DNA of 64,000 nucleotides from Alphaproteobacteria bacterium (GCA_965249135.1 OZ252220.1:640001-704000), one strand, 5' to 3'; shown: positions 2 through 58,574, counted from the stretch's first letter. Notes: generated by a model from the letters alone, not told the origin. Numbers and translations are program-made.

Positions 2-2221
2 CTCGCCTCGCTCAACCTGCTGACCTTCCGCACGGAGACGGGCGGATTCGATATCGAGTCCTTCGCCCACGCCGTGCGTTTGTGGACGATCGCGCTCGAA
101 ATCTCCGTCCTGATGGCGCAATTCCCTTCGAAGGAAATCGCCCTACTTTCCTATCAATACCGCACGCTCGGCCTTGGCTATGCGAATCTCGGCGGCCTGT
201 TGATGGCAAATGGCACGGCTTACGACAGCGAGGAAGGGCGCGCCATTTGCGCGGCCATCAGTGCCATTCTCACCGGCACGTCCTACGCCGCCTCCGCCGA
301 GATGGCGGCCGAGCTCGGCACCTTCGCGCACTTCCCGGAAAACTCCGAAGAAATGCTTCGGATCATCCGCAACCATCGCCGCGCCGCCTATGGTGAGGAG
401 GCGGGCTATGAGGGCCTTGCCGTAAAGCCCATGCCCTTGAAGGCGGAAGCCTGCCCGGATGAAGCGCTTGTGAAGGCGGCCCAGGACGCCTGGGACCGCG
501 CGCTTGAACTCGGCATGCAGTACGGCTACCGGAACGCGCAAGCCACCGTCGTCGCACCGACCGGCACGATCGGTCTCGTCATGGATTGCGACACGACCGG
601 CATCGAGCCGGATTTCGCGATCGTCAAGTTCAAGAAGCTGGCCGGTGGCGGCTACTTCAAGATCATCAATCACATGGTGCCGGTGGCGTTGCGCACGCTT
701 GGCTATTCAAAAGACGCTATCGAAGGGATGGTGCGCTACGCGACCGGCCACGGCACCTTGGAAAACGCGCCCGGAATCAATTTCGAAAGCCTGCGCGTCA
801 AGGGTTTCACCGAGGGCGTGCTGGCGAGCCTCGAAAAGGCGTTGGCGAGCGCCTTCGACATCAAGTTTGCCTTCAACAAATGGACATTCGGCGAGGAGTT
901 CTGCCGCTCTGTCCTCGGCTTCGACGATGATCAATTGAACAACCCGGCCTTCGAACTGTTGCCGGCCCTAGGCTTCACCCGGGAAGAGATCGAAGCCGCG
1001 AACGCGTATTGCTGCGGGGCGATGGCCCTGGAAGGTGCGCCGGAACTGAAAGAGGAGCACCTCGCCGTCTTCGATTGCGCATCCCCTTGCGGGCGATCGA
1101 GCCAGCGCTGCCTTTCCGTCGAAAGCCACATTCGGATGATGGCGGCATCCCAACCTTTCATTTCGGGGGCGATCTCGAAGACGATCAACATGCCGAACCT
1201 GGCAACCGTCGAGGACTGCAAGGAGGCCTATTTCCTTTCCTGGCAATTGGGGCTGAAGGCGAACGCCCTTTACCGCGACGGCTCGAAGCTTTCCCAGCCC
1301 TTGAGTGCGGCCATCTTCGAAGACCTCGAGGACGAAGACGAGGCAGCCGAGAGCCGGATCGAGGCAATGACGGCCGCGCCTGCACCCGTAAAGGCGGCCG
1401 CCTTAGCCGAACAGGTCGTCGAGCTGGCCGTGAACCGTTCCAGGCGGTCGCGGCTTCCCCAACGGCGCAAGGGCTACACGCAAAAGGCCTTGGTTGGCGG
1501 CCACAAGGTGTATTTGCGAACCGGGGAATACGAGGACGGCACCCTTGGCGAAATCTTCCTCGACATGCACAAGGAAGGGGCCGCCTTCCGCAGCCTAATG
1601 AACAATTTCGCGATCGCCATCTCGATCGGCCTGCAATACGGCGTGCCGCTGGAAGAATTCGTCGAGGCCTTCACCTTCACGCGGTTCGAGCCGTCCGGTC
1701 CCGTCGAAGGGAACGAGGCGATCAAGATGGCGACCTCGATCCTGGATTACGTCTTCCGGGAACTCGCCGTTTCCTACCTCAGCCGCAACGATCTGGCCCA
1801 TGCGAGTCCGGAAGATCTCCTGCCAGACAGCCTCGGCATCGGGGACGCGGAAGGCGCGCTTCCGCGGGACGACGCAACCAACGAGGTCTCTGCTGTCGCG
1901 CGGATCGCAAGCCGCGGGTACCTGCGCAAGAACCTTTACGTGCTGAAGGGCGGGCGCAACGGCAACGGACATGGCGCGAAGCCGGCAAAACCGAAGGAAC
2001 CGGTCGGGGCAACAGCAGCCGTAACGGCCCGAGCCGGAACCACGGTGACGGAAATCACCACCACGCAAGTCGCGATGGACGTGGAAGTGGTGCCCATCGT
2101 CGATGCGCGGCTCAAGGGCTATGAGGGGGACGCTTGCAGGGAATGTGGGAATTTTACGCTGGTCCGCAACGGAACCTGCCTCAAATGCGACACCTGCGGG
2201 GAAACGAGCGGATGCAGTTGA
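2..2221 (+). CDS. nrdJ: Vitamin B12-dependent (class II) ribonucleotide reductase, 5'-truncated by the window edge
   Basis: Frame is open from position 2 (LASLNL, tail of the CNLASLNL motif); [21 protein letters not shown] and YRDGSK motifs; C-terminal [13 protein letters not shown] zinc ribbon. Confidence 0.95.
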
Positions 2222-2256
2222 CGTAATTACGAATTCGACTTCCTCCCTGAAGACTT

Positions 2257-2291
2257 GAGGGGTGCAATGTTACGCACCCCTCTTTTTTTTT
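2257..2291 (+). terminator. Rho-independent terminator after nrdJ
   Basis: GAGGGGTGC/GCACCCCTC stem followed by a T9 tract. Confidence 0.85.
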
Positions 2292-2357
2292 ACCGAAACC
2301 CCGGCTGGACCGGATTTTCGGAAACCCCTATCCTCCCTGTCCACCTGGGAAAGAGGC

Positions 2358-2837
2358 ATGACGAAGGCTCAAGAAACACCGGAAGAACGCCTGCGCGCGC
2401 TGGAGATCAAGCTGCCGGAGCCGGCCGCTCCCATCGCCCACTATTTGCCTTACAGCGTCGTCGGAAATCTCGTCTTCGTCTCCGGCCAGATCGCCATCTG
2501 GGAAGGCGTCATGCAGTTCGAGGGAAAGATCGGCGAGGACCTCGGCTTGGTCGAGGCCCGCCAGGCGGCGCGCGTGGCCGTCCTCAACGTGATCGCCCAG
2601 GTGAAGGCGGCCTGCGGCGGCGAGCTTTCCCACGTGAAGCGCTGCGTGCGTTTGGCTGGCTATCTGAACGTCGTGCCCACCTATACGGACCACTCGACGG
2701 TCATGGACCACGCCTCGGACATTCTCATTCAGGTCTTCGGGAGGGACGTCGGGCAACATGCCCGCTTCGTCATCGGGGCGAACTCGTTGCCGAAGAATTC
2801 ACCGATCGAGATCGAGGGCATCTTCGAAATCGCGTGA
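2358..2837 (+). CDS. RidA/YjgF family protein
   Basis: PIAHYLP, VFVSGQI, GQHAR and IEIEGIFEI motifs; ATG at 2358 follows AAGAGG. Confidence 0.85.
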   Translation: MTKAQETPEERLRALEIKLPEPAAPIAHYLPYSVVGNLVFVSGQIAIWEGVMQFEGKIGEDLGLVEARQAARVAVLNVIAQVKAACGGELSHVKRCVRLAGYLNVVPTYTDHSTVMDHASDILIQVFGRDVGQHARFVIGANSLPKNSPIEIEGIFEIA

Positions 2838-2844
2838 ATGGGAT

Positions 2845-5142
2845 CTAATCGACGAGTTCGGTATCGGCCGTGCGGCCCTTCGGGCCGGAGTCCTTGCCGT
2901 CGGGATAGGTGAAGACGAGATCCCCGTCGCTCACGTCGATCCGAACGTAGCCGCCCTTCTCGAGCCGGCCGAAGAGAAGTTCTTCCGAGAGCGCCCGTTT
3001 CACCTGCTCCTCGATGACGCGGGCAAGCGGCCGGGCACCATATCGATCGTCGTAGCCCTTCTTCGCTAGCCAGGCGCGGGCCGCCTCCGTGAGCTCGATC
3101 GAAACCCCGCGATCCAAAAGCTGCGTTTCCAGCTGAATGATGAACTTGTCGACGACCTTCGCCATGATCTCCGGGGTGAGGCTCGCAAACGCAATCGTCG
3201 CATCCAGCCGGTTGCGGAATTCCGGCGAGAACAGGCGCTCGATCGCCTCCTGATCGTCGCCTTCCCGTTTCACACGTTCGAAGCCGACGGCGTGCTTCGT
3301 CATTTCCATGGCGCCGGCGTTCGTCGTCATGACGAGAATGACGTTTCGAAAATCGATCGCCTTTCCGTTGTGATCCGTGAGCTTGCCGTGATCCATGATC
3401 TGCAGCAGCAGACTGAAAAGGTCCGGATGCGCCTTTTCGACCTCATCCAGCAGCAACACCGCATGGGGATGCTGGTCGATGGCGTCCGTCAACAGGCCGC
3501 CCTGATCGAATCCGACATAGCCGGGCGGCGCGCCGATCAGACGCGAGACCGTGTGCCGCTCCATGTATTCCGACATGTCGAAACGCACGAGTTCGATCCC
3601 CAGCGTCAGCGCCAACTGGCGTGCCACCTCCGTCTTGCCAACCCCCGTGGGACCCGAGAAGAGGTAGCAGCCGATCGGCTTCTCCACCTCACGCAAACCG
3701 GCCCGCGCCAGTTTGATCGAGCTCGCGAGCGCCCCGATCGCTTCGTCCTGGCCATAGACCATCGTCTTCAGGTCGCAATCGAGATTGCGAAGCGATTCCT
3801 TGTCGTCCTTCGTGACGGTCTTCGGCGGAATGCGCGCGATTCCGGCGACGATACGCTCGACATCCTTGACGGTGATCTTCTTGCGGCGCTTGTTTTCCGG
3901 CAGCAGCACTTGCGAAGCACCTGCTTCGTCGATGACGTCGAGCGCCTTATCGGGCAAGCGCCGGTCCGTGATGTAGCGCGCCGAAAGCTCGACGGCGGCG
4001 CGAATCGCCTCCGCCGTGTAACGCACGCCATGATGCTTTTCGTAGTGCGGTTTCAGTCCGCGCAGGATCTTGATCGAATCACTTTGCGACGGCTCGTTCA
4101 CGTCGATCTTCTGGAACCGGCGGACCAGCGCCCGGTCCTTCTCGAAATAGTTCCGGTATTCCTTATAGGGCGTCGAGCCGATGCAGCGGAGATTGCCGCT
4201 GGCAAGCGCCGGTTTCAAAAGGTTCGAGGCGTCTATCGACCCGCCGCTGGTGGCGCCCGCCCCAATCACGGTGTGGATTTCGTCGATGAAAAGGATGGAG
4301 CTCGGAATCGAATCGAGCTCGGTAAGCACCGCCTTGACCCTTTCTTCGAAATCGCCGCGATAGCGCGTGCCCGCCAAAAGCGAGCCCATGTCCAGGGAGT
4401 AGATCGTCGTGGTCCGAAGGACCTCCGGCACCTCCCCGTCTACGATCCGGCGCGCCAGGCCCTCGGCGATCGCCGTCTTGCCGACCCCCGGATCGCCGAC
4501 GTAAAGCGGATTGTTCTTCGTGCGCCGGCAAAGAATCTGGATCGTGCGTTCGACTTCCGCTTCGCGACCAATCAATGGGTCGACCTTCCCGGCCCGGGCC
4601 TTCGCGTTCAGATTGACGCAGTAGGACTCCAGCGCCTCGAAGCCGGCCTTGAGGATGTCTTCTTCCTCTTCCTCGGCGCCGCGAACGGTGCGTGTCTCGG
4701 CATTTTCGGTCACCTTCGCGATACCATGAGAGATGTAGTTCACGGCATCCAACCGCGACATGTTCTGTTCCTGCAGGAAATAGATCGCGTGGGATTCGCG
4801 CTCGGCGAACATCGAAACGAGCACGTTGGCGCCCGTCACCTCTTCGCGCCCTGCCGACTGGACATGAATGGCTGCCCGCTGAAGCACCCGCTGGAAACCC
4901 GCCGTCGGCTTCGGATCCCCGCTGTCCTCACGGGAAAGAAAGGCAAGATCGTTGTCCAAATAGTCGATGAGATCGCAGCGAAGCCGCTCAAGATCGATGC
5001 CGCAGGCGCGCAGCACCGCCACCGAGTCCCGATCCTCCGTCAGCGCCAACAGCAGATGCTCGAGCGTCGCAAACTCATGGCTGCGCTCGTTGGAGAGCGC
5101 AAGCGCACGGTGCAGACTCTGTTCCAGGTTACGAGAAAGCAA
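2845..5142 (-). CDS. clpA: ATP-dependent Clp protease ATP-binding subunit ClpA
   Basis: Two AAA+ modules ([16 protein letters not shown]), Clp N domain, directly downstream of clpS. Confidence 0.97.
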
Positions 5143-49504: not shown

Positions 49505-50002
49505 ATGGACGCGATTGACCGCAAGTTGCTCGACTGCCTGCAGGCGGACGCGACGATGCCGCTCGCCGAAATCGCCGAGCACGTCGGCCTGTCCGCCACC
49601 CCTTGTTGGCGGCGAATCCAGAAGATGGAGGAAAACGGCATCATCTTAGGCCGCGTAGCACTCCTGGATGCGACGAAACTGAACGTCGGCGTCACCGTCT
49701 TCTTATCCATCAAGACCAGCCAGCATAACCGCGAATGGCTCGAAGAATTCGCCAACGCCGTCGTCGAAATGCCGGAGGTCGCCGAGTTCTACCGCATGAG
49801 CGGCGAGGTCGACTACCAGCTCCGCGTCGTCGTGCCCGACATCGCGGCTTACGACGCCTTTTACAAGCGGCTCATCGAAAAAGTGCCGTTGTCGGAAGTA
49901 AGTTCGAGCTTCGCGATGGAGCAGATCAAATACACGACGGCTCTGCCTCTAAGCTATGCGCGTATTTCGGACGCGTCCACCCGGGAAGCAGGCGGCAAGT
50001 GA
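49505..50002 (+). CDS. Lrp/AsnC family regulator (DecR-like)
   Basis: IDRKLL..VGLSATPCWRRI, YRMSGEVDY and AMEQIKYTT motifs. Confidence 0.92.
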   Translation: MDAIDRKLLDCLQADATMPLAEIAEHVGLSATPCWRRIQKMEENGIILGRVALLDATKLNVGVTVFLSIKTSQHNREWLEEFANAVVEMPEVAEFYRMSGEVDYQLRVVVPDIAAYDAFYKRLIEKVPLSEVSSSFAMEQIKYTTALPLSYARISDASTREAGGK

Positions 50003-50008
50003 TCCGCA

Positions 50009-50332
50009 TCATTTTTCGTGTCTCGGGCCGATCTGCGAGAACACCCAGATGGCCGCCGTCTCCTTGTTGAAGGCGGTGCTCTGCTGGCGCTTCGATCGGG
50101 TTTCGTTCAGCTTGCCAAGGATGTCATCCGGATCGTCCGCCTCGACCTCATACAAGGCGAGATAGTTGTGGGCGCTTTTCGCCCATTGCTCATCCGTGAG
50201 CTTGAAGCGTTGGGCGCCTTCCCAATCCGTCGTGGCGAGGATCTCATCCAGGTGAAGGTCCTCGTACCAGCGGTTGAATTCCGCTTCCTCTCCTTTGGTC
50301 GGGTTGCTGAAGATGAGCACCAGATGTTTCAT
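50009..50332 (-). CDS. Hypothetical protein (EthD/DUF4286-like alpha-beta barrel)
   Basis: EAEFNRWY..HL..AQRF..YLALYE pattern. Confidence 0.7.
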   Translation of the reverse strand: MKHLVLIFSNPTKGEEAEFNRWYEDLHLDEILATTDWEGAQRFKLTDEQWAKSAHNYLALYEVEADDPDDILGKLNETRSKRQQSTAFNKETAAIWVFSQIGPRHEK

Positions 50333-50458
50333 CGGGGGTTCCTTCCTATGCCAATCGTTTCCGCGATGGATGGTTCAACACTTGTAGCGGGCCGATTCAG
50401 GCTACATTATTACGTCCAGTGAGACTATCCGAAGGACTGAAAAAAGGGGAAGCGGAAG

Positions 50459-51093
50459 ATGACACCCTGGGAAATCAAAGCGCGCGAATTCAGCAACTGC
50501 AACTGTGCCTATGGCTGCCCCTGCCAATTCAACGCACTGCCGACCTACGGCGATTGCCAGGCGGTGGCCGGAATGGAAATCGACGAAGGGCATTACGGCG
50601 ACGTCCGTCTCGACGGATTGCTATTCGCGGCCATTTTTTTCTGGCCGAAGGCGATTCACGAAGGAAAGGGCAAATGTCAGCCGATCGTGGACGTGCGCGC
50701 CGACGCGCAGCAACGCGAAGCCCTGCTTAAGATCGTATCGGGCGAAGACACGGACCCCTTCGCCACGGTGTTCGCGGTTTTTGCCTCCACGATGGAGATC
50801 GTTTACCCCCCCCCTTGTTTAAGCCGATCGACTTCGAAGTCGATATCGCAGTGCGAACAGGCAAGCTTTTTATCGATGGCCTGATCGATTCCCGCGGCGA
50901 GCCTATCCGCGACCAGAGCACCGGCAAAGAATTGCGTGCCCGCATCGAACTTCCGGATGGATTCGAATACACGATCGCCGAAATGGGCAGCGCCTCCAGC
51001 ACGACCCAGGGCGAAATCGCGCTCAATTTGAAGGACAGCTACGGCCAGTTCGCCCATCTGCATCTCAACAACCATGGCGTGATTCGGGCTTAA
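50459..51093 (+). pseudogene. DUF1326 family protein, frameshifted at a C9 tract (50806-50814)
   Basis: CNCAYGCPC..GDC N-terminus; second half continues in another frame; followed by its usual DUF2182 partner. Confidence 0.82.
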
Positions 51094-51107
51094 AGCCGGG
51101 TAATCCC

Positions 51108-51950
51108 ATGGCCGGCGACCTCGACATCGTCCTGGAAAAGGCCCTGAAGCGCGATCAATGGATCGCTGGCTTCGGTCTTGCCCTTCTTTTTCTCTTCGCC
51201 TGGGCCTATTTGCTTGGCGGCGCCGGCTTAGGCATGTCGCTGGCCCAGATGACACTGGCCTCCTTCTTCCCGCATCTGCAACCGACGCTGGCCATGGGCG
51301 CGAATGTCGTCATGGCGCCCGGTGAGTGGAGCGTCGCATACACGTTTCTGATGATCGCCATGTGGTGGGTCATGATGATCGCTATGATGACGCCGAGTGC
51401 GGGGCCCATCATCCTTTTGCAAGCACGCGTCGCCCGAAGGACCGAGGCCAAGGGCAAGGAAGGGCTTGCCCTTGGCAAGACAGGCGCCTTCGCCGGCGGC
51501 TACCTTCTGGCCTGGCTCGCCTTTTCCTTATCCGCGGTTTTTCTGCAATGGGCGTTCGAGGCGACCGGTGCCGTCTCCGCTACAAGTATGGGATCGCAAA
51601 GTGCCTGGCTCTCGGCCCCCATCCTGTTTGCGGCCGGTCTCTACCAGCTCTCGCCAATGAAGGACGTGTGTCTCCGCCATTGCCGGGCGCCGGCTGAGTT
51701 TCTGTCGCGCCACTGGCGCCCCGGCCAGCTGGGCGCCATCCGGTTGGGCCTGCTGCATGGCGCCTATTGCGTCGGGTGCTGCTGGGCCTTGATGATACTT
51801 CTTTTTGTGGGCGGCGTCATGAACCCGATCTGGATCGTGGCCCTTGCCGCCATCGTGCTGCTTGAAAAAATCGGCCCCCGCGGCCCTTCGTTCGGCAAAG
51901 CCGGCGGGGTGCTTCTGATTGCCTGGGGCGGGGCGACGCTGCTCGTCTGA
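51108..51950 (+). CDS. DUF2182 metal-binding integral membrane protein
   Basis: MWWVMMIAMMTPS, AGLYQLSP.K..CL.HC and YCVGCCWALM motifs. Confidence 0.9.
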   Translation: MAGDLDIVLEKALKRDQWIAGFGLALLFLFAWAYLLGGAGLGMSLAQMTLASFFPHLQPTLAMGANVVMAPGEWSVAYTFLMIAMWWVMMIAMMTPSAGPIILLQARVARRTEAKGKEGLALGKTGAFAGGYLLAWLAFSLSAVFLQWAFEATGAVSATSMGSQSAWLSAPILFAAGLYQLSPMKDVCLRHCRAPAEFLSRHWRPGQLGAIRLGLLHGAYCVGCCWALMILLFVGGVMNPIWIVALAAIVLLEKIGPRGPSFGKAGGVLLIAWGGATLLV

Positions 51951-52124
51951 TCCTGGTGGCGGTGGCTGCTTTGGACATTGGAGGACAGCATCCCAACCGG
52001 ATGGGACCTTCGATAGGCACAGGTTACAGCCAAATATTGGGGTGGTTTTTGGAAGCGGAATGCTTCTTGATGATAGGGTTCTGGCTGAAGATCAACGCGC
52101 CCGCTGGGTCGATGGCATCTATAG

Positions 52125-52376
52125 ATGAAACTTGAAAACCAGGTCATCCGGATTGAGGACATCTACGTGCCCGTTAAGCGGCACAAGACGCTCAATCCGG
52201 AGACCGTGAATGAAATTGCCAATAGTATGCTGGAGGTTGGCCAGCTGGCGCCGATCCTAATTCGTAGAGATAAGGAACGTTATATCCTTGTGGAAGGCCT
52301 TCATCGATTGGAGGCGTGCAAGGCGGTCGGCGAAGAGACGATCCTTGCCCTCTTGGTTCAGGCTCGCAAATATTAA
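52125..52376 (+). CDS. Small ParB/Srx N-terminal domain protein
   Basis: GQLAPILIR..LVEGLHRLEA motif. Confidence 0.8.
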   Translation: MKLENQVIRIEDIYVPVKRHKTLNPETVNEIANSMLEVGQLAPILIRRDKERYILVEGLHRLEACKAVGEETILALLVQARKY

Positions 52377-52389
52377 GCCAAAATTGAGG

Positions 52390-52422
52390 TGGCGGAGCAG
52401 GCAGTCAGATGCATACCCGTCC
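52390..52422 (+). repeat. Core-only copy of the TGGCGG-N5-GCAGTC..CCCGTC site
   Basis: TGGCGGAGCAGGCAGTCAGATGCATACCCGTC aligns without gaps to the cores at 53812 and 55523. Confidence 0.65.
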
Positions 52423-52442
52423 ACGTCGCGCGCCCTTCCCGC

Positions 52443-53762
52443 CTAGCCATACAAGCCCGCCCTCGTCGGCGGCAGACCGGAAGGGCCCTTGGATTTCTGC
52501 TTGGTGGCAAGCGTTTGATAAATCCTGAGCGCGCCGTCGTCGAACGCAAACGACGCGCCTGCAAGGTAGGCCATCCACATACGGTACTTCTCCAGTCCGA
52601 TTTGTGCGATTGCCTTGTCCTTGTTGGCGACCAGCCGCTGATGCCACAGCCGACAGGTCAGCGCGTAATGCTCGCGCCAGCACTCCACGTCGCGAACTTC
52701 GAAACCGCGCGCCTCCATGACCTCGAGCGAATGGCCGATATGGTCGAGCTCCGAGCCTGGGAAGATGTACTTCAGCAAAAGCCGCTTTTCCGGCACCATC
52801 CTTCGAAATTTGCGGCGGCTTCGCTTGACCCGCCGGGTGATGCCATGATTCAAGAGGAGACCCCGGTCACGCAGCAAGCTGTTCAGCTTGCCGAAATAGG
52901 TCGGGTAGTTGGCGATGCCGACATGCTCGTACATGCCGATCGAGGCGATTTTGTCGTATTCGCCGTCGAGGCTCTCGTAATTGCGTAACTCCACCCTCAC
53001 CTGGTCTTCCAGGCCGAGCCGGCGCACCTTCTCCACCGCGTAGTCGTGCTGGGTCTGCGAAAGCGTAACACCGTGGGCCTTGACGCCGTACCTCTTCGCC
53101 GCGTGGCACAACAGCCCGCCCCAGCCGCAGCCGATGTCGAGGAACCGCTCGCCCGGTTGCAGGCGCAGTTTCTTGCAGATCATTTCTAGCTTGTCGTGCT
53201 GAGCCTGCTCCAGCGGGTTGTCCCAGTCCGTGAAATAGGCGCAGGAATATTGCATCTCCGCATCCAGGAAGAGGGCGTAGAAGTCGTTGCCGATGTCATA
53301 GTGGAACTGAATGAATTTCTTATCGTCGCGACGGGTTTGTTGACGGCCGGTCGCGTCGTCGGTGTATGCGTGGGCCAGCTGGACTTTGTCCTCGAATGCA
53401 AATAACAGGGGCAGCGCGTGCTTCAGCAGGAAGCCCTTGCGCAGGTGCCGCGCCTTGATCTTGACCTTCTTCTGGCGCGCAAGCCCGATGAAGGTGAGCA
53501 GGTCGCCGCCTTCGAAATCGATGTGTCCGGCGGCGTAGTGACGCACCAAGGTCTCCAACGTCGGCCGGCGGAGGATCGAACCCAGCACGCCCGGTCCGCT
53601 GATCGTGATGCAGTGGGCCGGATCCGCATGTCGGCCCAAAGGCACGATGGAACCGTCCCACAAGCGTACGCAAAAGCGAGTATCGAGCCGTTCGGCCAGA
53701 TGCTCGAAAATATTCCGGGCCGCGTTCAATCGCTTGTGGTCGAAGATCGTTGCCCCACCCAT
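52443..53762 (-). CDS. cfa: Cyclopropane-fatty-acyl-phospholipid synthase family methyltransferase
   Basis: HYDIGNDFY, MQYSCAYF, LDIGCGWG, SIGMYEHVG and HYALT motifs. Confidence 0.9.
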   Translation of the reverse strand: MGGATIFDHKRLNAARNIFEHLAERLDTRFCVRLWDGSIVPLGRHADPAHCITISGPGVLGSILRRPTLETLVRHYAAGHIDFEGGDLLTFIGLARQKKVKIKARHLRKGFLLKHALPLLFAFEDKVQLAHAYTDDATGRQQTRRDDKKFIQFHYDIGNDFYALFLDAEMQYSCAYFTDWDNPLEQAQHDKLEMICKKLRLQPGERFLDIGCGWGGLLCHAAKRYGVKAHGVTLSQTQHDYAVEKVRRLGLEDQVRVELRNYESLDGEYDKIASIGMYEHVGIANYPTYFGKLNSLLRDRGLLLNHGITRRVKRSRRKFRRMVPEKRLLLKYIFPGSELDHIGHSLEVMEARGFEVRDVECWREHYALTCRLWHQRLVANKDKAIAQIGLEKYRMWMAYLAGASFAFDDGALRIYQTLATKQKSKGPSGLPPTRAGLYG

Positions 53763-53776
53763 GTTTGCGAGAGTCC

Positions 53777-54000
53777 CCTCGCCCGAAAATCGCGCATAGA
53801 AGAAGACTAGTTAGCGGACCACGCAGTCTTAAGCGAACCCGTCTCCGCCGATTTCCCTGTTTAACAGGGAAAATACAGGGAATTTTCGAAGAATCAGCCT
53901 GTAATCGACGGGATCTTTCCCTCTAATGGACCGATATCACTTGGCCATTTAGCCAAATTTCCTACGCGACGGAACGGGGAAATTTTTCGACCGAACAGGG
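53777..54000 (+). repeat. 224-bp non-coding direct repeat, copy 1
   Basis: Ungapped match to 55488-55711 with about 15 mismatches by manual count. Confidence 0.95.
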
Positions 54001-54025
54001 AATGCATGACGCCGGACACTGGGTG

Positions 54026-55138
54026 CTAAGCCTTCTTGATCAGGCCGTAAGATCCCAAGTAGATGACGTAGATCAACGTTACATAAATCATCAGGTCCAT
54101 CCAGGTCAGAGGATCTCCGCCGAAACCGGGGCTGATCTCGGCTTCATGGAGCACGTCGATGGCAAACCAACGTGTGTAGGCGATGAAGGTCGCGATTCCT
54201 AGACCGTAGGTGATGACGAGTCGGATCACTCTGTTGGCAAGGGGGCCGAGACCGGTCGGTGGGTTGCCCACCACGTTTGGCCAAGCGATCAGCCAAAAGG
54301 CTATGCAGACCCCGAGTTGCGCCGGCCAGAGGTTGATCGCGGCCGCCAGAGTAACTTGGGCCTCCTCCGGCATAAGCAACCCCTTGAGGAGGGCAAGGAA
54401 GACGAAGTAAATCCCTGTGCCGACGATGAAGTTTCCCACGAGGGCTGCGATGGCCGTCTTGGCGCGTGAGCCGAACGCGTTCCAGGGCCAGTTCTCGAAG
54501 ATGAGGAAGATCGTGAGCCAGGACAGGATCACCGAGTAAAACCAGCCGATCACCGTCGTCAGAGGCAGGACCGTATTCTCAGGAGCAGTCCAACTGGCGA
54601 CACTGGGGTAGATGAGGATGATGTACAAGAAAAACGTGAGGAAGAAACCGAAGAAGAACTCCGCAATACCCACCCAGGGCTGCTTCAGTCCCAAGTCGAC
54701 CCACGGCCAGTGTCCCGCACTGGTACCCAGGATGCCCCAAGTGTAGAACCCGATGAGCACAATCATGGTGGTGGCGGTGTAGCCCGCCTTGCTGATGTCG
54801 AAGGCGGGGTCGAGCGACCCGTAGCCGTGAAGCAGCACGACGGCCGTAATCACGGCGAGCACCGTGGTTAGCGCAATCCAAAGCAAGCCCCGCGCGGGCT
54901 GTGGCAGGTGGCCAAGTCCCCACAACTCGCCCATGAAGCCAAAGAAAACCACGAATAGGATCGACCAGAAGAGCATCACATTGAACGGTTGCGGATAGAG
55001 TTTCCACACCGCCTGGCTGGGATCCGCGAAGAGCTCCCAGATGAGGTAGCTGCCCGCCAAGATGACCAAGAGACTGATCAGTGAGAACGCTATCGGGCCA
55101 AGCTGCAACCCAAAGGGTTTTTTCTCTATTGTTTCCAT
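54026..55138 (-). CDS. Polytopic membrane protein, possible amine/amino-acid transporter
   Basis: About ten hydrophobic segments with repeated (H/N)WPW motifs; family assignment uncertain. Confidence 0.7.
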   Translation of the reverse strand: METIEKKPFGLQLGPIAFSLISLLVILAGSYLIWELFADPSQAVWKLYPQPFNVMLFWSILFVVFFGFMGELWGLGHLPQPARGLLWIALTTVLAVITAVVLLHGYGSLDPAFDISKAGYTATTMIVLIGFYTWGILGTSAGHWPWVDLGLKQPWVGIAEFFFGFFLTFFLYIILIYPSVASWTAPENTVLPLTTVIGWFYSVILSWLTIFLIFENWPWNAFGSRAKTAIAALVGNFIVGTGIYFVFLALLKGLLMPEEAQVTLAAAINLWPAQLGVCIAFWLIAWPNVVGNPPTGLGPLANRVIRLVITYGLGIATFIAYTRWFAIDVLHEAEISPGFGGDPLTWMDLMIYVTLIYVIYLGSYGLIKKA

Positions 55139-55159
55139 GACGGGTCTTCCCTCGTGTTC

Positions 55160-55417
55160 CTAAAGTTGAACTTTAGACGAACGCAGCTCCAGTATCCATA
55201 CCATGACAGCACTGTACCGTCTCGTGGCAAATGTCGATGCCGCGCGCTCATGGAGCAGATCCTCGACTTGTCGCAATGACAGCGGAAGGCGGACATACAT
55301 CATCACCGACAGGCGTATAACCTCGGGCGAGCTGTTGAAATAACGGAAGGGATTTTGCATCTCCTGACGCTACGCGACGTCTCCATCCGCCTCAAGCCCA
55401 TTTACTCTGACAATGCC
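55160..55417 (-). mobile_element. IS6-family remnant (left end plus truncated transposase)
   Basis: End GGCATTGTCAGAGTAAA at 55417; PFRYFNSSPEVIRL..LSLRQVEDLLHER, then frameshift and truncation. Confidence 0.85.
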
Positions 55418-55487
55418 CCCGGTCCGGCTTGTGACGTTGCCTTGCGCGAAGGCCCGCAGAACGCCGCGAACAAGGCCAATACTCGGG

Positions 55488-55711
55488 CCTCGCCCGAAAA
55501 TCGCGCATAGAAGAAGACTCGTTGGCGGCGCGCATAGTCTGATGCGAACCCGTCTCCGCCGATTTCCCTGTTTAACAGGGAAAATACAGGGAATTTTCGA
55601 AGAATCAGCCTGTAATCGACGGGATCTTTCCCTCTAATGGACCGATATCACTTGGCCATTTAGCCAAATTCCCCGCGCGACGGAACAAGGAAATTTTTCG
55701 GCCGAACAGGG
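55488..55711 (+). repeat. 224-bp non-coding direct repeat, copy 2
   Basis: Matches 53777-54000 at an offset of 1,711 bp. Confidence 0.95.
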
Positions 55712-55883
55712 TTAGAGAAGTGTCTCAACGTAATAAACATAATGGGTTCATCCGGGACGGGAAATGCCATGTTCAACCCATGGTTAGTTAATGTGACAAT
55801 GCTCCAAGCGGATATAATTTTCGGTAGGCACAATCGCGCGGCCACCCGTGACGAACCTGGAGGCGCGCCATCGATCATGAAGC

Positions 55884-56510
55884 ATGATATACCCGGATTT
55901 ATGGCAGACACTCCCGGAGCATCCGTTCGGGCCCGAGATGTCTACCCACGCGTGTCTCCTAACGAGAGGCGCGGGCGATGTCCTTTTTTATAGCTCCGGG
56001 CATTCGGACGAACACCAACACATTCTCCGGCTCGGAGGGATTGACCGCCAGTATTTGAGCCATCGGGACGAAGCCGGAGACGCCCTGGTTCGCATCAAAG
56101 AGACGTTTGGATCGAAGCTCTGTTGTCACAAGCTGGAGGAAGAAGCAATTCGTGCCGCGTGTCCCGTGGACCTGACGTTCGAGAACCGGGAGTTTCATCT
56201 TGGTGACATCGAGGTCATACCGACGCCTGGTCATACGGAAGGAAGCGCATGCTTCATGTACAAGTCACCACATGGGCACACGTACCTCTTTACGGGCGAC
56301 ACCATCTTTCTGAAGGACGACTCTTGGGGAACCTATGTGTCGGACGAGCACAAGCGCACATTAAAGGAAAGCCTCGAGTTGCTGGGCAGCCTGAAGCCAA
56401 GCGTGGTTATTTCCAGCGCGGCGATTGGCCATCTCTCGTTCAAAGAAGTATTACCCGGTGAATGGCCAGTAATCGTAGAGGGTGCCATTCGTTCGCTGGC
56501 GTTAAGGTGA
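55884..56510 (+). CDS. MBL-fold metallo-hydrolase
   Basis: LSHRDE, TPGHTEGS and LFTGD motifs. Confidence 0.82.
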   Translation: MIYPDLWQTLPEHPFGPEMSTHACLLTRGAGDVLFYSSGHSDEHQHILRLGGIDRQYLSHRDEAGDALVRIKETFGSKLCCHKLEEEAIRAACPVDLTFENREFHLGDIEVIPTPGHTEGSACFMYKSPHGHTYLFTGDTIFLKDDSWGTYVSDEHKRTLKESLELLGSLKPSVVISSAAIGHLSFKEVLPGEWPVIVEGAIRSLALR

Positions 56511-56682
56511 TAGCGAATTGCACCCGAATCAGACCCTCGTCAGCCCCTACGAAATCTGCCACCTTTAGTGCGTGGGCGGGTGAGCGTCTCTGCGTGACGT
56601 GTAAATCTCACGCCGTTTGGCGTAGGGGCTTCTCCCAAAGGCCGCAGCCTAAACACACGAAAACGGAAAGTGGAGGATTCGA

Positions 56683-56892
56683 ATGAGTGATAATGTGTAC
56701 AAGGTGATCCGTCTCGTCGGTTCCTCTTCGTCGAGCATCGAAGAGGCCATTCATAACGCAATCAGGAAGTCCTCGAAGACCCTGAAAAACTTGCGTTGGT
56801 TTGAGGTCGTCGAGACCCGCGGGCATATCGAGGGCGGCAAGGTTGACCATTTCCAGGTAACACTGGAGGTAGGATTCACGCTGGAGAATTAA
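56683..56892 (+). CDS. Dodecin family protein
   Basis: [39 protein letters not shown]. Confidence 0.93.
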
Positions 56893-57053
56893 GTCGCGCA
56901 AGCCGCACCTTTATTCGCTTGATTGACTTTCGTATCTGGGTGCGTACCGGATATGCGGCCGTGGCCTGCCTCCATTAAGCGATCCACTCTCTAAATTAGA
57001 GATTAGCGCGGTTTAAATTGCGGCCGAAAGTTCGGGTACCATTGCAGCACGCG

Positions 57054-57395
57054 TTAGGCCTTTTTCGTAGCAATCTCATTCACCTTGGCCGCCATGATAA
57101 AATCGTTTTCATGCAGCCCCTTGATTTTCTTTGTCTGCCAAGAGACGGCCGCAAAGCCCCAGCCGAATGAAATGTCCGGGTGGTGGCCTTCTGCCTCCGA
57201 AAGGGCCCCGACCGCGTCCACGAAATCGAGTGCTTCCTTGAAGTTTCTGAAGGTGAAGCGTTTTTCGATTCGCGCGTCTTCGTCGCATAGCGCCCAGCCT
57301 GGGGTCTGGGCGAGGTACTTTTCCGTCTCTTCCGGCTTCAGAGGCGGAATTCCTCCTTGGCAGGGGGTGCAGGTTTTCGCCGTCAAATCCGTCAT
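57054..57395 (-). CDS. Pterin-4-alpha-carbinolamine dehydratase
   Basis: CTPCQGG, EAEGHHPDI and GLHENDFIMAAK motifs. Confidence 0.9.
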   Translation of the reverse strand: MTDLTAKTCTPCQGGIPPLKPEETEKYLAQTPGWALCDEDARIEKRFTFRNFKEALDFVDAVGALSEAEGHHPDISFGWGFAAVSWQTKKIKGLHENDFIMAAKVNEIATKKA

Positions 57396-57454
57396 GCTTT
57401 CTCCATTGCTTCCATAGGTAACACGGCTCACTTCAAAGACGAGACTCGCGCAGC

Positions 57455-57688
57455 TTAGTAGGACTTGGCGGGGAACGGAATATCGAACTCCTCCAGCGTG
57501 GCTCCCGCCTTTAGGCTCACTTCGTACTGCCGAACTTTACCCTCTTTGATATGGCCGTGTATCCTGATGACATCGAACCAGTGCAAGTTTTTCATTGTCG
57601 ACTTGCCGATCGCGCTTTGAATCGCTTCCTCGATACTGGACGAAGATGAACCATCAGGCTCGGTAACTTTGTACAGTTTGTCAGTCAT
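57455..57688 (-). CDS. Second, divergent dodecin-like protein
   Basis: [36 protein letters not shown]. Confidence 0.75.
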   Translation of the reverse strand: MTDKLYKVTEPDGSSSSSIEEAIQSAIGKSTMKNLHWFDVIRIHGHIKEGKVRQYEVSLKAGATLEEFDIPFPAKSY

Positions 57689-57701
57689 TCGAATCCTCTC
57701 G

Positions 57702-58574
57702 TTAAAACGATGCCTGGTCCGGCAGGCGGTCGATTTCGGCAACGTCGTCGGGCTCGAGCCGTACGTGAAGAGCCTGTGCCGAATCGCGCACGCTCGACAC
57801 CCTGCTCGCCCCCGGGATCGGAAAGATGTGATCCCCTTTCTGCAGAAGCCACGCCAGGGCGACGCAATAGGGCGATGCACCATATTTCTTGAAGAGACGC
57901 CGGAAGAGCGGGTGCTTCGGCAATCGCATGTGGCCCCTATGACCCCCCACAGGACTGTAAGGAACGTAGGCGACGCCCCTCTCTCGGCACAGGCCAATGA
58001 GGCCGTTGTCGAGATCTCTTTTGAAGAACGGATTGCAGCGATTCTGAACGGACGCGACGGCCGTTCGGCCAAGCGCGAATTCAAGTTCTGCCCGATCGAC
58101 GTTAGACAACCCGATGTTGAGGATCTTTCCTTCCTCCTTGAGCCGGATCAATTCCCCAAGCGAATCATCAAAGAGCACGTCCGAGTCCACCGCATGGAGG
58201 TGATAGAGGGAAATCGCCTCGCGCTGCAGATCCTTGAGGCTCTTCTCGCACGAGGATCGCAGCCATTTCGGGTTCCCATCCGTTACCCATTCCCCTTTTG
58301 GCCGCCGCAAGCCCCCCTTGGTGGCGACCAGCACGGCCTCGCGCGCGCCGATCCGCGTGAGCGCTTTGTGGATAAGGCGCTCGTTGTGGCCGATGTCCGA
58401 ATCGTTCAGACAGTAGACATTGGCGGTGTCAATGAAATTGCCGCCATCTTCGACGAACGTATCGATGACCTCGAAGGCCTGGGATTCATCGGGCCGCCCC
58501 GCGATGGAAAGCGGCATGGCGCCCAAGCCGATCGGCTTTACCTGCCATCCCGTCCCGTTCAGGTCCCGGTTCAT
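57702..58574 (-). CDS. Aldo/keto reductase
   Basis: IGLGAM, IDTANVY, VATKGG, IGLSN, PYSP and PIPG motifs. Confidence 0.92.
   Translation of the reverse strand: MNRDLNGTGWQVKPIGLGAMPLSIAGRPDESQAFEVIDTFVEDGGNFIDTANVYCLNDSDIGHNERLIHKALTRIGAREAVLVATKGGLRRPKGEWVTDGNPKWLRSSCEKSLKDLQREAISLYHLHAVDSDVLFDDSLGELIRLKEEGKILNIGLSNVDRAELEFALGRTAVASVQNRCNPFFKRDLDNGLIGLCRERGVAYVPYSPVGGHRGHMRLPKHPLFRRLFKKYGASPYCVALAWLLQKGDHIFPIPGASRVSSVRDSAQALHVRLEPDDVAEIDRLPDQASF

Follow-up and report, generated by a model that had tools for sequence, protein, structure and literature searches.

Unrelated genes in an alphaproteobacterial genome are found at very short distances from copies of a noncoding repeat, which raises the question of what this repeat is and how it came to stand at the gene boundaries. 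The locus lies in a stretch of 64,000 nucleotides (GCA_965249135.1 OZ252220.1:640001-704000) that was analysed as a whole and is called the window in the following. An earlier note on this DNA had proposed an integron-like cassette system, in which a site-specific recombinase acting in trans repeatedly adds genes. From sequence comparison we suggest instead, with a probability of roughly 0.7, that each of the 224-bp units is a copy of the attachment site used by integrative elements that large serine recombinases (LSR) mobilise and that the copies in the window are leftovers of a decayed island. Decayed tandem insertions fit better than integron-like cassettes.

Organization of the repeat array

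The two direct repeats which the note had reported at 53777-54000 and 55488-55711, together with a third, core-only copy at 52390, are real: the two repeats align without gaps over 224 nt with 209/224 identical positions (E = 1.7e-93 against the whole genome). The 15 mismatches between the copies are located at 53809, 53813, 53818, 53819, 53821, 53823, 53824, 53830, 53832, 53960, 53963, 53964, 53976, 53977, and 53990. As described before, nine of them fall over the core, within 24 bp (53809-53832), and the identical stretch that follows, estimated at ~125 bp, measures 127 bp (53833-53959). Outside the 224 nt the flanks are unrelated (8/30 identical positions on the left, 6/30 on the right). 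Searched with up to three mismatches, the core pattern matches the window only at the three sites already known, 52390, 53812, and 55523, all on the + strand and with two mismatches each, and it matched in 0/100 shuffled windows; a genome-wide scan with up to four mismatches returned these three sites and one at 897955 (4 mismatches). The limits of the repeat hold for the comparison of the two copies but are not the ends of the unit, as homology of copy 2 to other family members runs 70 bp further left, to 55420. In addition, both copies are shortened on the right relative to complete members of the family. The array and its neighbours are composed as follows:

52125..52376, + strand: ORF of 83 aa with a ParB_N domain (Pfam ParB_N, E = 2.9e-7), left neighbour of the array
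52390..52422, + strand: core 3, attL-type junction (core pattern with 2 mismatches; 0 chance matches expected)
52443..53762, - strand: cfa, cyclopropane-fatty-acyl-phospholipid synthase family (Pfam CMAS, E = 3.6e-91), regarded as cargo
53777..53811, + strand: remnant of the left arm (P-arm) of module 1, 35 nt with a terminal AGACT (alignment with family P-arms; inverted pair AGACT-N16-AGTCT)
53812..53846, + strand: core of module 1, TAGCGG..GCAGTCT..GCGAACCCGTCTCC, putative crossover region (family alignment, core pattern)
53847..54002, + strand: right arm (P′) of module 1, shorter than the arms of relatives, which have 3-4 repeats
54026..55138, - strand: predicted membrane protein ORF of 370 aa, cargo (no Pfam family)
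55160..55419, - strand: remnant of the left end of an IS6-family element (with its terminal inverted repeat 55402-55419 and first transposase codons), abutting the P-arm of module 2
55420..55522, + strand: full P-arm of module 2, that is, a left extension and the first 35 nt of the 224-nt repeat (homologous to P-arms of the same genus)
55523..55557, + strand: core of module 2, TGGCGGCG..ATAGTCT..GCGAACCCGTCTCC (family alignment, core pattern)
55558..55711, + strand: P′ arm of module 2 with palindrome (55563-55583), second motif (55586-55593), spacer, and repeats, ending inside the last repeat at 55711
55712..55805, - strand: truncated IS6-derived miniature element (inverted repeat 55788-55805; comparison with L087)

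The distances between genes and cores were also given correctly before, with the ParB_N ORF ending at 52376 and cfa extending from its start at 53762 to its stop at 52443. Thus cfa is separated by 20 nt from core 3 and by 14 nt from module 1, and the stop of the membrane ORF follows 26 bp after module 1. Core 3 consists of an unrelated left flank, TGGCGGAG, and the first ~25 nt of the P′ arm, the remaining arm being absent, and corresponds to positions 107-146 of the module profile (nhmmer, E = 0.068 genome-wide). A homologue of the ParB_N ORF sits in another module-carrying insertion (G005:C6), and the homology stops right after the stop codon, 12 bp before core 3. Core 3 thus behaves as a junction, with a chromosomal flank joined to a right arm.

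The gene cfa is the sole copy in the genome. Its homology to the cfa loci of two other genomes (G005 and G004) is limited to 52431-53724, and the neighbours of those loci are absent from this genome; judged by these comparisons, cfa is a cargo gene in a non-native context. For the membrane ORF no DNA match was found in the five other genomes of the genus. In the P′ arm of module 1 the 21-bp palindrome (53852-53872) is followed by a second ACAGGGAA (53875-53882), a spacer, an inverted half-motif, and repeats at 21-bp spacing (53974-53981, degenerate, and 53995-54002). The 66-aa ORF of the IS6 remnant has no Pfam match itself, and 55216-55418 has many copies in G005, G001, and G004; the G001 homologue is collinear with a DDE_Tnp_IS240 fragment above the Pfam cut-off (31.2 bits, cut-off 27), in agreement with the earlier assignment to IS6. 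In comparison with G005:C13, the left ~45 bp of the miniature element and the rest of module 2 are missing.

A conserved noncoding module

The repeat is part of a conserved noncoding module of about 300 bp that comprises a left arm (P-arm), the core TGGCGG(A/T)G-N4-GCAGTCT-N3-GCGAACCCGTCTC, and a right arm (P′) with a 21-bp palindrome and AACAGGGAA repeats at 21-bp spacing. The idea that only the copies in the window exist is contradicted by the spread of this family: the marker 19-mer ACAGGGAAAATACAGGGAA (up to one mismatch) is present in 30/401 sampled genomes of the class and 24/307 genera, one of the 30 genomes (G131) being a coding false positive, and the reversed 19-mer used as control is present in 1/401. 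There are 1-8 modules per genome.

The anatomy is constant in 24 aligned copies, with the arrays at a fixed distance and orientation to the core. Conservation starts exactly at TGGCGG, the left flanks being unrelated in most genomes, and modules with such unrelated flanks are common outside this genome. GACT and AGTC are spaced by 16 or 19 nt in 9/38 loci, all nine with a left flank of the P-arm type and including both window copies. The motif copies are located 40-260 bp from the inferred crossover and are also found inverted on the other arm in G011 and G383.

Association with large serine recombinases and tRNA genes

In relatives the module is found just 3′ of operons coding for a DUF3489 protein, a DUF2924 protein, and an LSR, which bears out the tie of such sequences to alphaproteobacterial large serine recombinases suggested in the earlier note. 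The LSR has Resolvase, Recombinase, and zinc-ribbon domains, and DUF2924 in part matches the RAMA domain. In G011 a same-strand LSR is directly upstream of five of the eight modules, two of these LSR genes being truncated; the same adjacency occurs in G195, G384, G265:C63, and G268, and in G030 a remnant of the LSR C-terminus precedes the module. The LSR clade is present in 93/401 sampled genomes, namely in 18/30 genomes with modules versus 75/371 others (odds ratio 5.9, Fisher p = 7e-6, the genomes being not independent). The remaining 12/30 module genomes, several of them incomplete, have no LSR match at E up to 1e-40, a point against an attachment site. Also against it, a scan of 100 ORFs at 10 other loci, over 10 kb, gave no domain of a serine or tyrosine recombinase; tblastn on the same loci revealed an LSR in G303, 6.8 kb from the module, and the C-terminal remnant in G030.

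An opposite-strand tRNA gene lies within about 3 kb downstream at 11/24 LSR loci (6 Ser, 2 Val, 2 Met, 1 Gln), and G303 adds one tRNA-Ser; at 13/24 there is no tRNA within the stretch examined, a further point against an attachment site. The first 8 nt of the core, read on the opposite strand, are the CTCCGCCA end of tRNA-Ser genes, the core start TGGCGG(A/T)G corresponding to the 3′ end ...C(T/A)CCGCCA. Thus the likeness to a tRNA 3′ end which the earlier note had pointed out is confirmed for these 8 nt and for the junctions into tRNA-Ser described below, but not for a longer tRNA fragment, as only TGGCGGAG and CGAACCC match tRNA-Ser 3′ ends. A tRNA gene or fragment was rejected: the module contains no cloverleaf and no T-arm and acceptor in register, and ARAGORN found no tRNA in 50000-58000.

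The left part of the module profile aligns up to and into the 3′ end of tRNA-Ser at three loci (L103, L097, L098). The P-arm is followed by an intact tRNA-Ser in integrated elements and by the P′ arm in modules, the switch occurring after TGGCGGAG. In G005 the arm at the junction shares 98 identical positions with the P-arm of each of two modules of the same genome, up to ...GACTTGCTGGCGGAG, beyond which the junction continues into a tRNA T-arm and the modules continue with GCAGTCT... The P-arm of module 2 in the window is homologous to the arm between LSR and tRNA-Ser in G005:C6, where the order is LSR (+), a gene for 267 aa (-), P-arm, and tRNA. As the P-arm is shared between modules and tRNA-Ser junctions and as modules adjoin LSR genes, the module is probably the attachment site of the LSR. 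The earlier suggestion of att-type sites whose recombinase is encoded outside the window is thereby supported, and all recombinase matches of this genome do fall outside the window, as the note had stated.

Proposed origin of the array

We suggest that the elements are mobilised by the LSR encoded in the operon with the two small DNA-binding proteins, DUF3489 and DUF2924. The P-arm would be the LSR end of the element and the P′ arm its opposite end, and strands would be exchanged within TGGCGGAG, midway between the two halves of the inverted pair AGACT-N16-AGTCT; judged from the junctions, the crossover thus probably lies within the CCA end of the tRNA. Full modules with P-arm, core, and P′ arm would be junctions between elements inserted successively at the same tRNA, each incoming element displacing the older ones from it, and core 3 with its unrelated left flank would be the distal junction. 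The two small units may be deletion remnants of older elements that lost their mobility genes, the cargo gene once located between LSR and P-arm being retained. The repeat arrays are putative accessory binding sites for the DUF2924 or DUF3489 proteins, which is the weakest step of the proposal.

The layout of the island is consistent with this scheme. Core 3, cfa, module 1, the membrane ORF with the IS6 remnant, and module 2 are followed by about 25 kb of accessory genes and then, beyond them, by the DUF2924-LSR locus, a tyrosine-integrase element, and tRNA-Ser(GCT). Neither the LSR, which is on the same strand 25 kb to the right of the modules, nor the tRNA gene, at 33 kb in the same direction, lies within the window; the tyrosine-integrase element between them would be a later arrival. 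Modules followed by a same-strand LSR and an opposite-strand tRNA are likewise found in G005:C6, G005:C13, G303, G265:C115, and G195:C2, the G005:C13 island being orthologous to that of the present genome (G000). A minus-strand gene stands just left of a module in several cases (cfa, the membrane ORF, VOC, HAD, and Sulf_transp).

For the window itself the result is modest. The LSR is the only one of the module-linked clade found in the genome and is frameshifted; the sites are therefore most likely inactive relics. Several observations do not favour the attachment-site reading: the window modules have no adjoining LSR (the nearest is 25 kb away); gene boundaries at 14-35 bp require deletions ending near coding sequences in three units; and no recombination product was seen, as contigs of four runs, which are blind to rare forms, contain no deletion, excision, or circle joint. 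Nor does the second module locus of the genome (897 kb), which has neither tRNA nor LSR nearby, favour it; there VOC is 17 and 35 bp from its modules.

Alternative explanations

The cassette proposal of the earlier note, in which small circles of one gene and an att module, inserted and excised in trans by a serine recombinase, would accumulate at the distal end of the island, has to be considered first. The three single-gene units have one orientation and very short spacers, cfa was separated from its native context very nearly at the limits of its coding sequence, and cargo is enclosed by pairs of directly oriented modules in G000 (twice), G005:C13, and G108:C7. In addition, the core of module 1 has module-2 letters in related strains, so that modules exchange sequence. 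Nevertheless, we regard this proposal as unlikely. Where they adjoin the genes, the right arms are cut off at three places (behind the core, ahead of the arrays, or behind the second repeat), and no junction motif is common to these. Furthermore, no unit was seen whose two boundaries coincide with the putative crossover, the single LSR of the clade detected in the genome is frameshifted, and contigs of strains about 2% divergent, which come from three other studies, have an identical layout. The adjacency of minus-strand gene and P-arm is accounted for by a cargo slot between LSR and attachment site. An integron proper was rejected, as the window contains no IntI-type tyrosine recombinase and the five PF00589 matches of the genome all lie outside it, the nearest abutting tRNA-Ser(GCT) at 728 kb. 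So were attC-type hairpins, since there is no conserved structure with covariation and the boundaries fall at varying points of the module.

It is also unlikely that a live capture system exists, in which mini-cassettes devoid of a recombinase, with one gene and a 70-300-bp att module, would be inserted in trans by DUF2924-LSR enzymes at tRNA-linked islands, the arms being read by RAMA-type proteins for direction. If true, such a system would be the functional analogue of the integron on a different enzyme.

To our knowledge the LSR attachment sites studied so far are short and without arms; therefore the arrays may have another function in replication or partition. The arrays and the palindrome could serve the excised element as a replication origin of the iteron type or as a partition site, having no part in recombination and lying beside the att core by position only. 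The 3-4 direct repeats at 21-bp phasing with an inverted pair, the DUF7146 (primase-associated) ORF in the island, and the replication modules that such elements can have according to the part of the tycheposon study used here (bioRxiv 10.1101/2020.12.28.424599) are in line with this idea. We consider it quite improbable, as no conserved rep or par gene lies beside the arrays in the 10 loci scanned, as distance and orientation to the core do not vary among the aligned copies, and as the inverted motif copies on the other arm in G011 and G383 are the layout expected of att arms.

A structured noncoding RNA, a tRNA-like gene, or a promoter or operator cassette for the gene on the left is very improbable. 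Single sequences fold somewhat more stably than shuffles (z = -3.2 and -2.5), and in 6/8 cases of the genus a module has the start of a minus-strand gene immediately to its left. Against this, Rfam gave 0 matches at E up to 1, ARAGORN none, and RNAalifold no conserved structure with covariation (covariation term +0.31, a compensatory change in 1/17 pairs); a sigma-70-like site was not found within the modules, and the neighbouring genes are mutually unrelated.

A miniature transposable element, an IS end (for example, of the neighbouring IS6 family), or an assembly duplication can practically be dismissed even though IS6-type inverted repeats abut or lie near modules, a module is at contig ends in several assemblies (G265), and metagenome read depth is very high over 53812-53962 and 55171-55623: IS6 remnant and module are separate, occurring independently and in differing orders, no terminal inverted repeats or target duplications surround the modules in the sequences read, copies number 1-8 per genome, the PF13610 transposase was not found in the genome, there is no match among plasmid records, and cfa, module 1, and the membrane ORF lie together on contigs from independent runs, which excludes an assembly artefact.

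Comparison with known systems

Large serine recombinases are prized as tools because their sites are short and no host factors are needed. The modules described here share with the att sites of large serine integrases of the phiC31, Bxb1, and TP901-1 type the location beside the LSR gene, a putative imperfect inverted repeat around a central point, and hybrid junctions with the chromosomal target. In contrast to these, the target appears to be the 3′ CCA end of a tRNA which is left intact, the module is long (~300 bp) and has a perfect palindrome and arm-like arrays in which a 9-10-bp motif recurs, and the genes for two small DNA-binding proteins precede that of the LSR. Thus, an LSR clade present in 93/401 genomes appears to insert at the tRNA CCA end without breaking the tRNA, using a long, two-armed site with repeat arrays and two small DNA-binding partners. 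It offers a system for asking in what way a serine integrase recognises a tRNA end, whether the direction of the reaction depends on accessory proteins, and how flexible islands of small genomes arise and then erode to bare cargo genes.

The res sites of small serine resolvases (Tn3, Sin) also combine a crossover site with direct and inverted motif copies and a spacer between them; unlike there, the motif copies of the module extend 40-260 bp from the inferred crossover and the enzyme is a large serine recombinase. Integrons have in common with the window single genes in one orientation, recombination-site repeats between them, and very short spacers; the window differs by having no IntI, no attC-type hairpins, no fixed boundary site, and another recombinase family.

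tRNA genes are regarded as targets of tyrosine integrases, and the arms of lambda type are the model for arm-like repeats in attP, a feature common to the modules and to islands of the Islander type. Like the island described here, these islands are bordered by the tRNA gene on one side and by a displaced copy of the tRNA 3′ end on the other, and they can form tandem arrays (Islander, PMC4383910). A tRNA-proximal recombinase gene and tandem accretion at a single tRNA are also in common (PMC4383910); the recombinase here is, however, a serine recombinase, and the core coincides with the tRNA over only ~8 nt, its remainder being a conserved look-alike (CGAACCC).

According to the parts of the tycheposon study considered here (bioRxiv 10.1101/2020.12.28.424599), elements arriving one after another at the same tRNA displace older ones into the island, the islands of streamlined marine bacteria contain scattered degenerate remnants and partial tRNAs with niche genes as cargo, and 27 of 937 elements carry an LSR. 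The island described here has the same layout, with a tRNA-proximal recombinase, tandem remnants between att repeats, and cargo genes, and it shares with tycheposons, as described in those parts, displaced remnants at one tRNA and a small host genome (2.1 Mb). The complex att module with DUF2924 and DUF3489 partners is not in that part of the account (bioRxiv 10.1101/2020.12.28.424599).

Two observations concern tRNA genes other than tRNA-Ser. In three genomes of one genus, arrays follow a same-strand tRNA-Arg and have no LSR-type core; these arrays are not explained by the attachment-site reading. One module copy (L063) starts with TGGTGGGC, the reverse complement of a tRNA-Val 3′ end, and tRNA-Val is among the targets observed at LSR loci.

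The repeats of the window and their relatives

The repeats belong to a non-coding unit of ~300 bp, the module, which consists of a left arm (P), a core with the inferred crossover, and a right arm (P'). The direct repeat of the earlier note is real, as window positions 53777-54000 and 55488-55711 align over 224 nt without gaps and with 209 identical positions. Of the 15 mismatches, nine cluster at 53809-53832, ahead of a run of 127 identical bases, and the sequences flanking either copy are unrelated on both sides. The noted core pattern could likewise be recovered at three window positions (52390, 53812, and 55523), always on the plus strand and with 0 matches in 100 shuffles. The 224-nt pair thus stands, but as a description of the repeat it is incomplete: the family homology of module 2 runs 70 bp further left, and the right side of each copy is cut short.

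Features of the window (window numbering) and of the region to its right (genome numbering)
52125-52376, plus strand: ParB_N-like ORF
52390-52422, plus strand: core 3, a core-only copy
52443-53762, minus strand: cfa
53777-54002, plus strand: module 1
54026-55138, minus strand: 370-aa membrane ORF
55160-55419, minus strand: IS6 remnant
55420-55711, plus strand: module 2
720.1-722.3 kb, same strand as the modules: DUF2924 gene and large serine recombinase (LSR) gene, 25 kb away and outside the window
right of the LSR gene: autotransporter gene
727089-728513: tyrosine integrase gene, outside the window
728524-728616, directly after the integrase gene and on the opposite strand: tRNA-Ser(GCT), followed by the core genes gatB and gatA

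The gene cfa, located between core 3 and module 1, is the sole copy in the genome holding the window (G000). Only 52431-53724 is homologous to the cfa loci of the relatives G005 and G004, whose flanking genes are missing from G000. The homology between the ParB_N-like ORF and its homologue on contig C6 of G005 ends 12 bp before core 3, and thus core 3 is a junction too. A search of the other five genomes of the genus gave no relative of the membrane ORF. The membrane ORF is followed by an IS6-family left-end remnant which abuts the P-arm of module 2, and module 2 itself breaks off at 55711, where it meets a truncated miniature element derived from IS6 (55712-55805).

Elsewhere in the 2.12-Mb genome the family is represented only at 897.1 and 897.9 kb, by a partial copy each, and at 939.9 kb, by a fragment. 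The two partial copies flank a VOC/glyoxalase gene (897.1-898.2 kb, loci L003 and L040) with an adjoining IS6-type repeat and housekeeping-like genes around; neither a tRNA nor an LSR is nearby. The fragment (939887-939951) is an isolated piece of the P-arm (its left extension), far from all other parts of the family.

Anatomy and distribution of the module

BLAST located the extended copy in three of the other five genomes of the genus, as well as in two further families of the class. A distant BLAST of the plasmid collection with the module gave no match. The most conserved 19-mer, allowing up to one mismatch, is present in 30 of the 401 sampled genomes of the class, a count that takes in G045, flagged as unpublished, and in 24 of 307 genera; the reversed pattern occurs in 1 of 401. 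In one of the 30 genomes (G131) the match is coding, and no other part of the module accompanies it. Alignments of 19 and 24 copies revealed a fixed anatomy.

Elements of the module, from left to right
Core: TGGCGG(A/T)G-N4-GCAGTC(T/C)-N3-GCGAAC(C/T)(C/T)GTCTC
Palindrome: TTCCCTGTT(T/A)AACAGGGAA, ~10 bp past the core, then a second ACAGGGAA
Spacer: ~85 bp after the second ACAGGGAA, unalignable between lineages
Array: after the spacer, AATTCCCTA and then two to four (A/G)AACAGGGAAT repeats at 21-bp spacing

Conservation starts exactly at TGGCGG, and left of it the sequence is unrelated in most genomes. In two genomes (G011 and G383) copies of the motifs are also found in inverted orientation on the other arm.

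A large serine recombinase next to the module

The earlier note mentioned similar sequences near alphaproteobacterial large serine recombinases, and this link is borne out by the relatives. In the 5-Mb genome G011 five of the eight modules are located ~100-400 bp downstream of an LSR gene on the same strand. This gene codes for Resolvase and Recombinase domains, and genes for a DUF2924 and a DUF3489 protein lie in front of it. The same order, with the module directly 3' of a same-strand LSR gene, recurs in G195, G384, G265:C63, and G268, and G030 has a C-terminal LSR remnant upstream of the module. DUF2924 has a partial match to the RAMA DNA-binding domain, according to one paper (PMC11342252).

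The LSR clade (E <= 1e-40) is present in 93 of the 401 genomes and in 18 of the 30 module genomes, both counts again including G045, compared with 75 of the 371 others (odds ratio 5.9, Fisher p = 7e-6; the genomes are related). As genomes rich in mobile elements may hold both features and the genomes are not independent, we take this co-occurrence as supportive only.

In addition, we observe a cargo slot between the recombinase gene and its site. On G005:C6 an LSR gene (plus) is followed by a 267-aa gene (minus), the P-arm, and then the tRNA, and in six of eight cases in the genus a minus-strand gene starts just left of the module.

The tRNA target and the probable crossover

Downstream of 24 LSR loci of the clade, 11 have an opposite-strand tRNA within ~3 kb, the 3' end facing the LSR (six Ser, two Val, two Met, and one Gln); G303 adds one more tRNA-Ser, and at the other 13 loci no tRNA lies within the stretch fetched. 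Only the left part of the module profile matches the tRNA junctions, and in G005:C6, G108:C3, and G108:C1 the match reaches into the 3' end of tRNA-Ser. The arm beside tRNA-Ser(GGA) in G005 shares 98 identical positions with each of the left arms of two G005 modules, up to ...AAGACTTGCTGGCGGAG; past this point the junction continues as the tRNA T-arm (GGAGTGGGATTCGAACCC) and the modules continue as TGCGCAGTCTTGTGCGAACCCGTCTCC. As the same P-arm thus continues as tRNA-Ser at the junction and as P' in the modules, the sequence comparison indicates that the module is composed of a P arm, 8 nt common to the CCA end of tRNA-Ser, and a P' arm, with the switch point within TGGCGGAG.

Copies with a P-arm carry the inverted pair AGACT-N16-AGTCT centred on GGCG|GAG (9 of 38 loci, both window copies included; the spacing in G011 is 19). 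Copies with other left flanks agree with the form expected of the distal junction of an integrated element. Locus L063 begins with TGGTGGGC, the reverse complement of the end of tRNA-Val, which is an observed target of the LSR clade. Between two sublineages of G011 the LSR side and the core are 84% identical (167/200), compared with 49% (67/138) for the right arms, as would be expected if arms of different elements were joined at the site. An empty-site comparison at tRNA-Ser(GGA) between G000 and G005:C6 is not clean, as the distal flank is rearranged.

The island to the right of the window

The block just right of module 2 codes for a metallo-beta-lactamase fold protein, pterin dehydratase, aldo-keto reductase, MsrB, and others, and is 87-89% identical to a block on G005:C13 that lies there between two modules of the same orientation. 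A layout of module, tens of kb of cargo, same-strand LSR gene, and opposite-strand tRNA is also found in G005:C6, G303, G265:C115, and G195:C2; in G379 and G052 the module and the LSR gene have the same orientation, with no tRNA within the stretch fetched.

The LSR gene of G000, the only one of the clade found in this genome, is split relative to an intact homologue, with residues 1-349 in frame 1, residues 383-557 in frame 3, and the frameshift between about L031:2607 and 2712 (locus L031, gene at 1561-3310), 80.6-80.7 kb from the first base of the window. A Sigma70_r4-like HTH ORF and the DUF2924 ORF precede it. The homology between G000 and G005:C13 stops exactly at the 3' end of tRNA-Ser(GCT), and in G005:C13 the LSR gene, which is intact and codes for 563 aa, adjoins the tRNA. 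Therefore the two islands are orthologous and the tyrosine-integrase element of G000 arrived later; the integrase and autotransporter genes between tRNA and LSR resemble a more recent island at this tRNA.

How the array may have arisen

With a probability of about 0.7, we suggest that the repeats are what is left of attachment sites used by a family of tRNA-targeting LSR elements, in a decayed island, and we regard the finding as real and largely explained. Several elements would have inserted one after another at tRNA-Ser(GCT), so that each junction between neighbouring elements would have the attP form. Deletions from the right arm into the element would then have removed the mobility genes and retained the cargo. 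Serial insertion followed by deletion is the simplest account of the window. The right arms are not cut at a common position: one stops after the core, one before the arrays, and one past the second repeat. As the three cargo genes also show no common boundary motif at their 3' ends, deletion fits better than site-specific cassette capture. The array is not an integron, as there is no IntI, attC hairpins are absent, and the boundaries are variable, and the integron-like cassette system considered in the earlier note is improbable.

The mode of working is that of tRNA-targeting genomic islands with tandem accretion. It also resembles that of the islands built by tycheposons in streamlined marine bacteria, where an LSR is present in a minority (bioRxiv 10.1101/2020.12.28.424599). 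In contrast to those islands, the enzyme belongs to another family, the tRNA overlap is small (8 nt), and the site is long and two-armed. Among titles and abstracts on DUF2924, DUF3489, and serine recombinases or integrases with tRNA or islands, none dealt with the module or with a tRNA-Ser-aimed LSR, which is no proof of absence.

The palindrome and the arrays could also be taken for an origin or a partition site, which we consider improbable. That the arrays are fixed beside the core, that inverted motif copies occur on the other arm in G011 and G383, and that the operon codes for two small DNA-binding proteins suggests putative accessory sites resembling att arms. Such accessory sites would be unusual for a serine integrase.

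A transposon end of the Tn7, Tn5053, or Mu type with multiple transposase sites, prompted by the 21-bp phasing, was rejected, as no such transposase is among 100 ORFs around 10 loci. An RNA was likewise not supported: an Rfam scan of window positions 50000-58000 gave 0 matches at E <= 1, and the palindromes account for most of the single-sequence z values (-3.2 and -2.5), which come without covariation. RNAalifold on the modules gave a covariation term of +0.31 with a compensatory change in 1 of 17 pairs. Nor is the core a tRNA: ARAGORN was negative, the T-stem is unpaired, and the register exceeds that of a tRNA by 3 nt. With Rfam, ARAGORN, and covariation all negative, the constraint acts on the DNA sequence, as for protein-binding sites. 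A sigma-70 promoter and terminator scan found none inside the modules, with counts at shuffle level, and TGGCGG-N5-GC as a sigma-54 promoter was dismissed by eye, since the -12 element varies among copies.

Variation between strains

Contigs of four public runs cover the region, one identical to the window and three differing by ~2%. The repeated addition of genes between the cores that the earlier note envisaged is not reflected in these strains, as the order cfa, module 1, membrane ORF, and IS6 remnant is kept in the three divergent ones. Neither a joint skipping 1,711 bp nor a back-joint was found in the contigs of the runs X3, X5, X6, and X8, which drop rare forms. In the three divergent strains (X5, X6, and X8; window 53809-53950) module 1 has the letters of module 2 at eight of the nine core mismatch positions, and its centre shows ~17 differences where the two window copies are identical. 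Thus, sequence is exchanged between the copies, probably through gene conversion.

Further observations

A 99-nt inverted repeat (window 56673-56771 and 57600-57698) is 75% complementary, with arms 828 nt apart. No IS6 transposase domain was found anywhere in G000, and G001 has an IS6 copy with an internal deletion. On G005:C13 (L087:4045-4170) a ~150-bp miniature element has IS6-type inverted repeats, and the version in the window is truncated where module 2 stops. On L088 (G005:C6, 64.2-84.2 kb) seven IS6-type terminal repeats (TGACAATGCC) occur in a single orientation within 8 kb, accompanied by numerous copies (125-200 bp) of the left end of IS6, to which window positions 55216-55418 are related. 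These terminal repeats and left ends resemble arrays of segments bounded by IS6 that have since decayed.

Three members of one genus (G030, L071; G209, L045; G338, L047 and L073) have the palindrome and arrays downstream of, and on the same strand as, tRNA-Arg(CCG); an LSR-type core is absent there, and the orientation is opposite to that at the LSR/tRNA-Ser junctions. These core-less arrays are left without explanation by the model of an LSR site. Finally, IS110-family transposase genes directly adjoin the AACAGGGAA arrays on the right in several G011 copies (L014, L020, L022, and L027:8840-8900), and IS110 may preferentially target this edge of the module.
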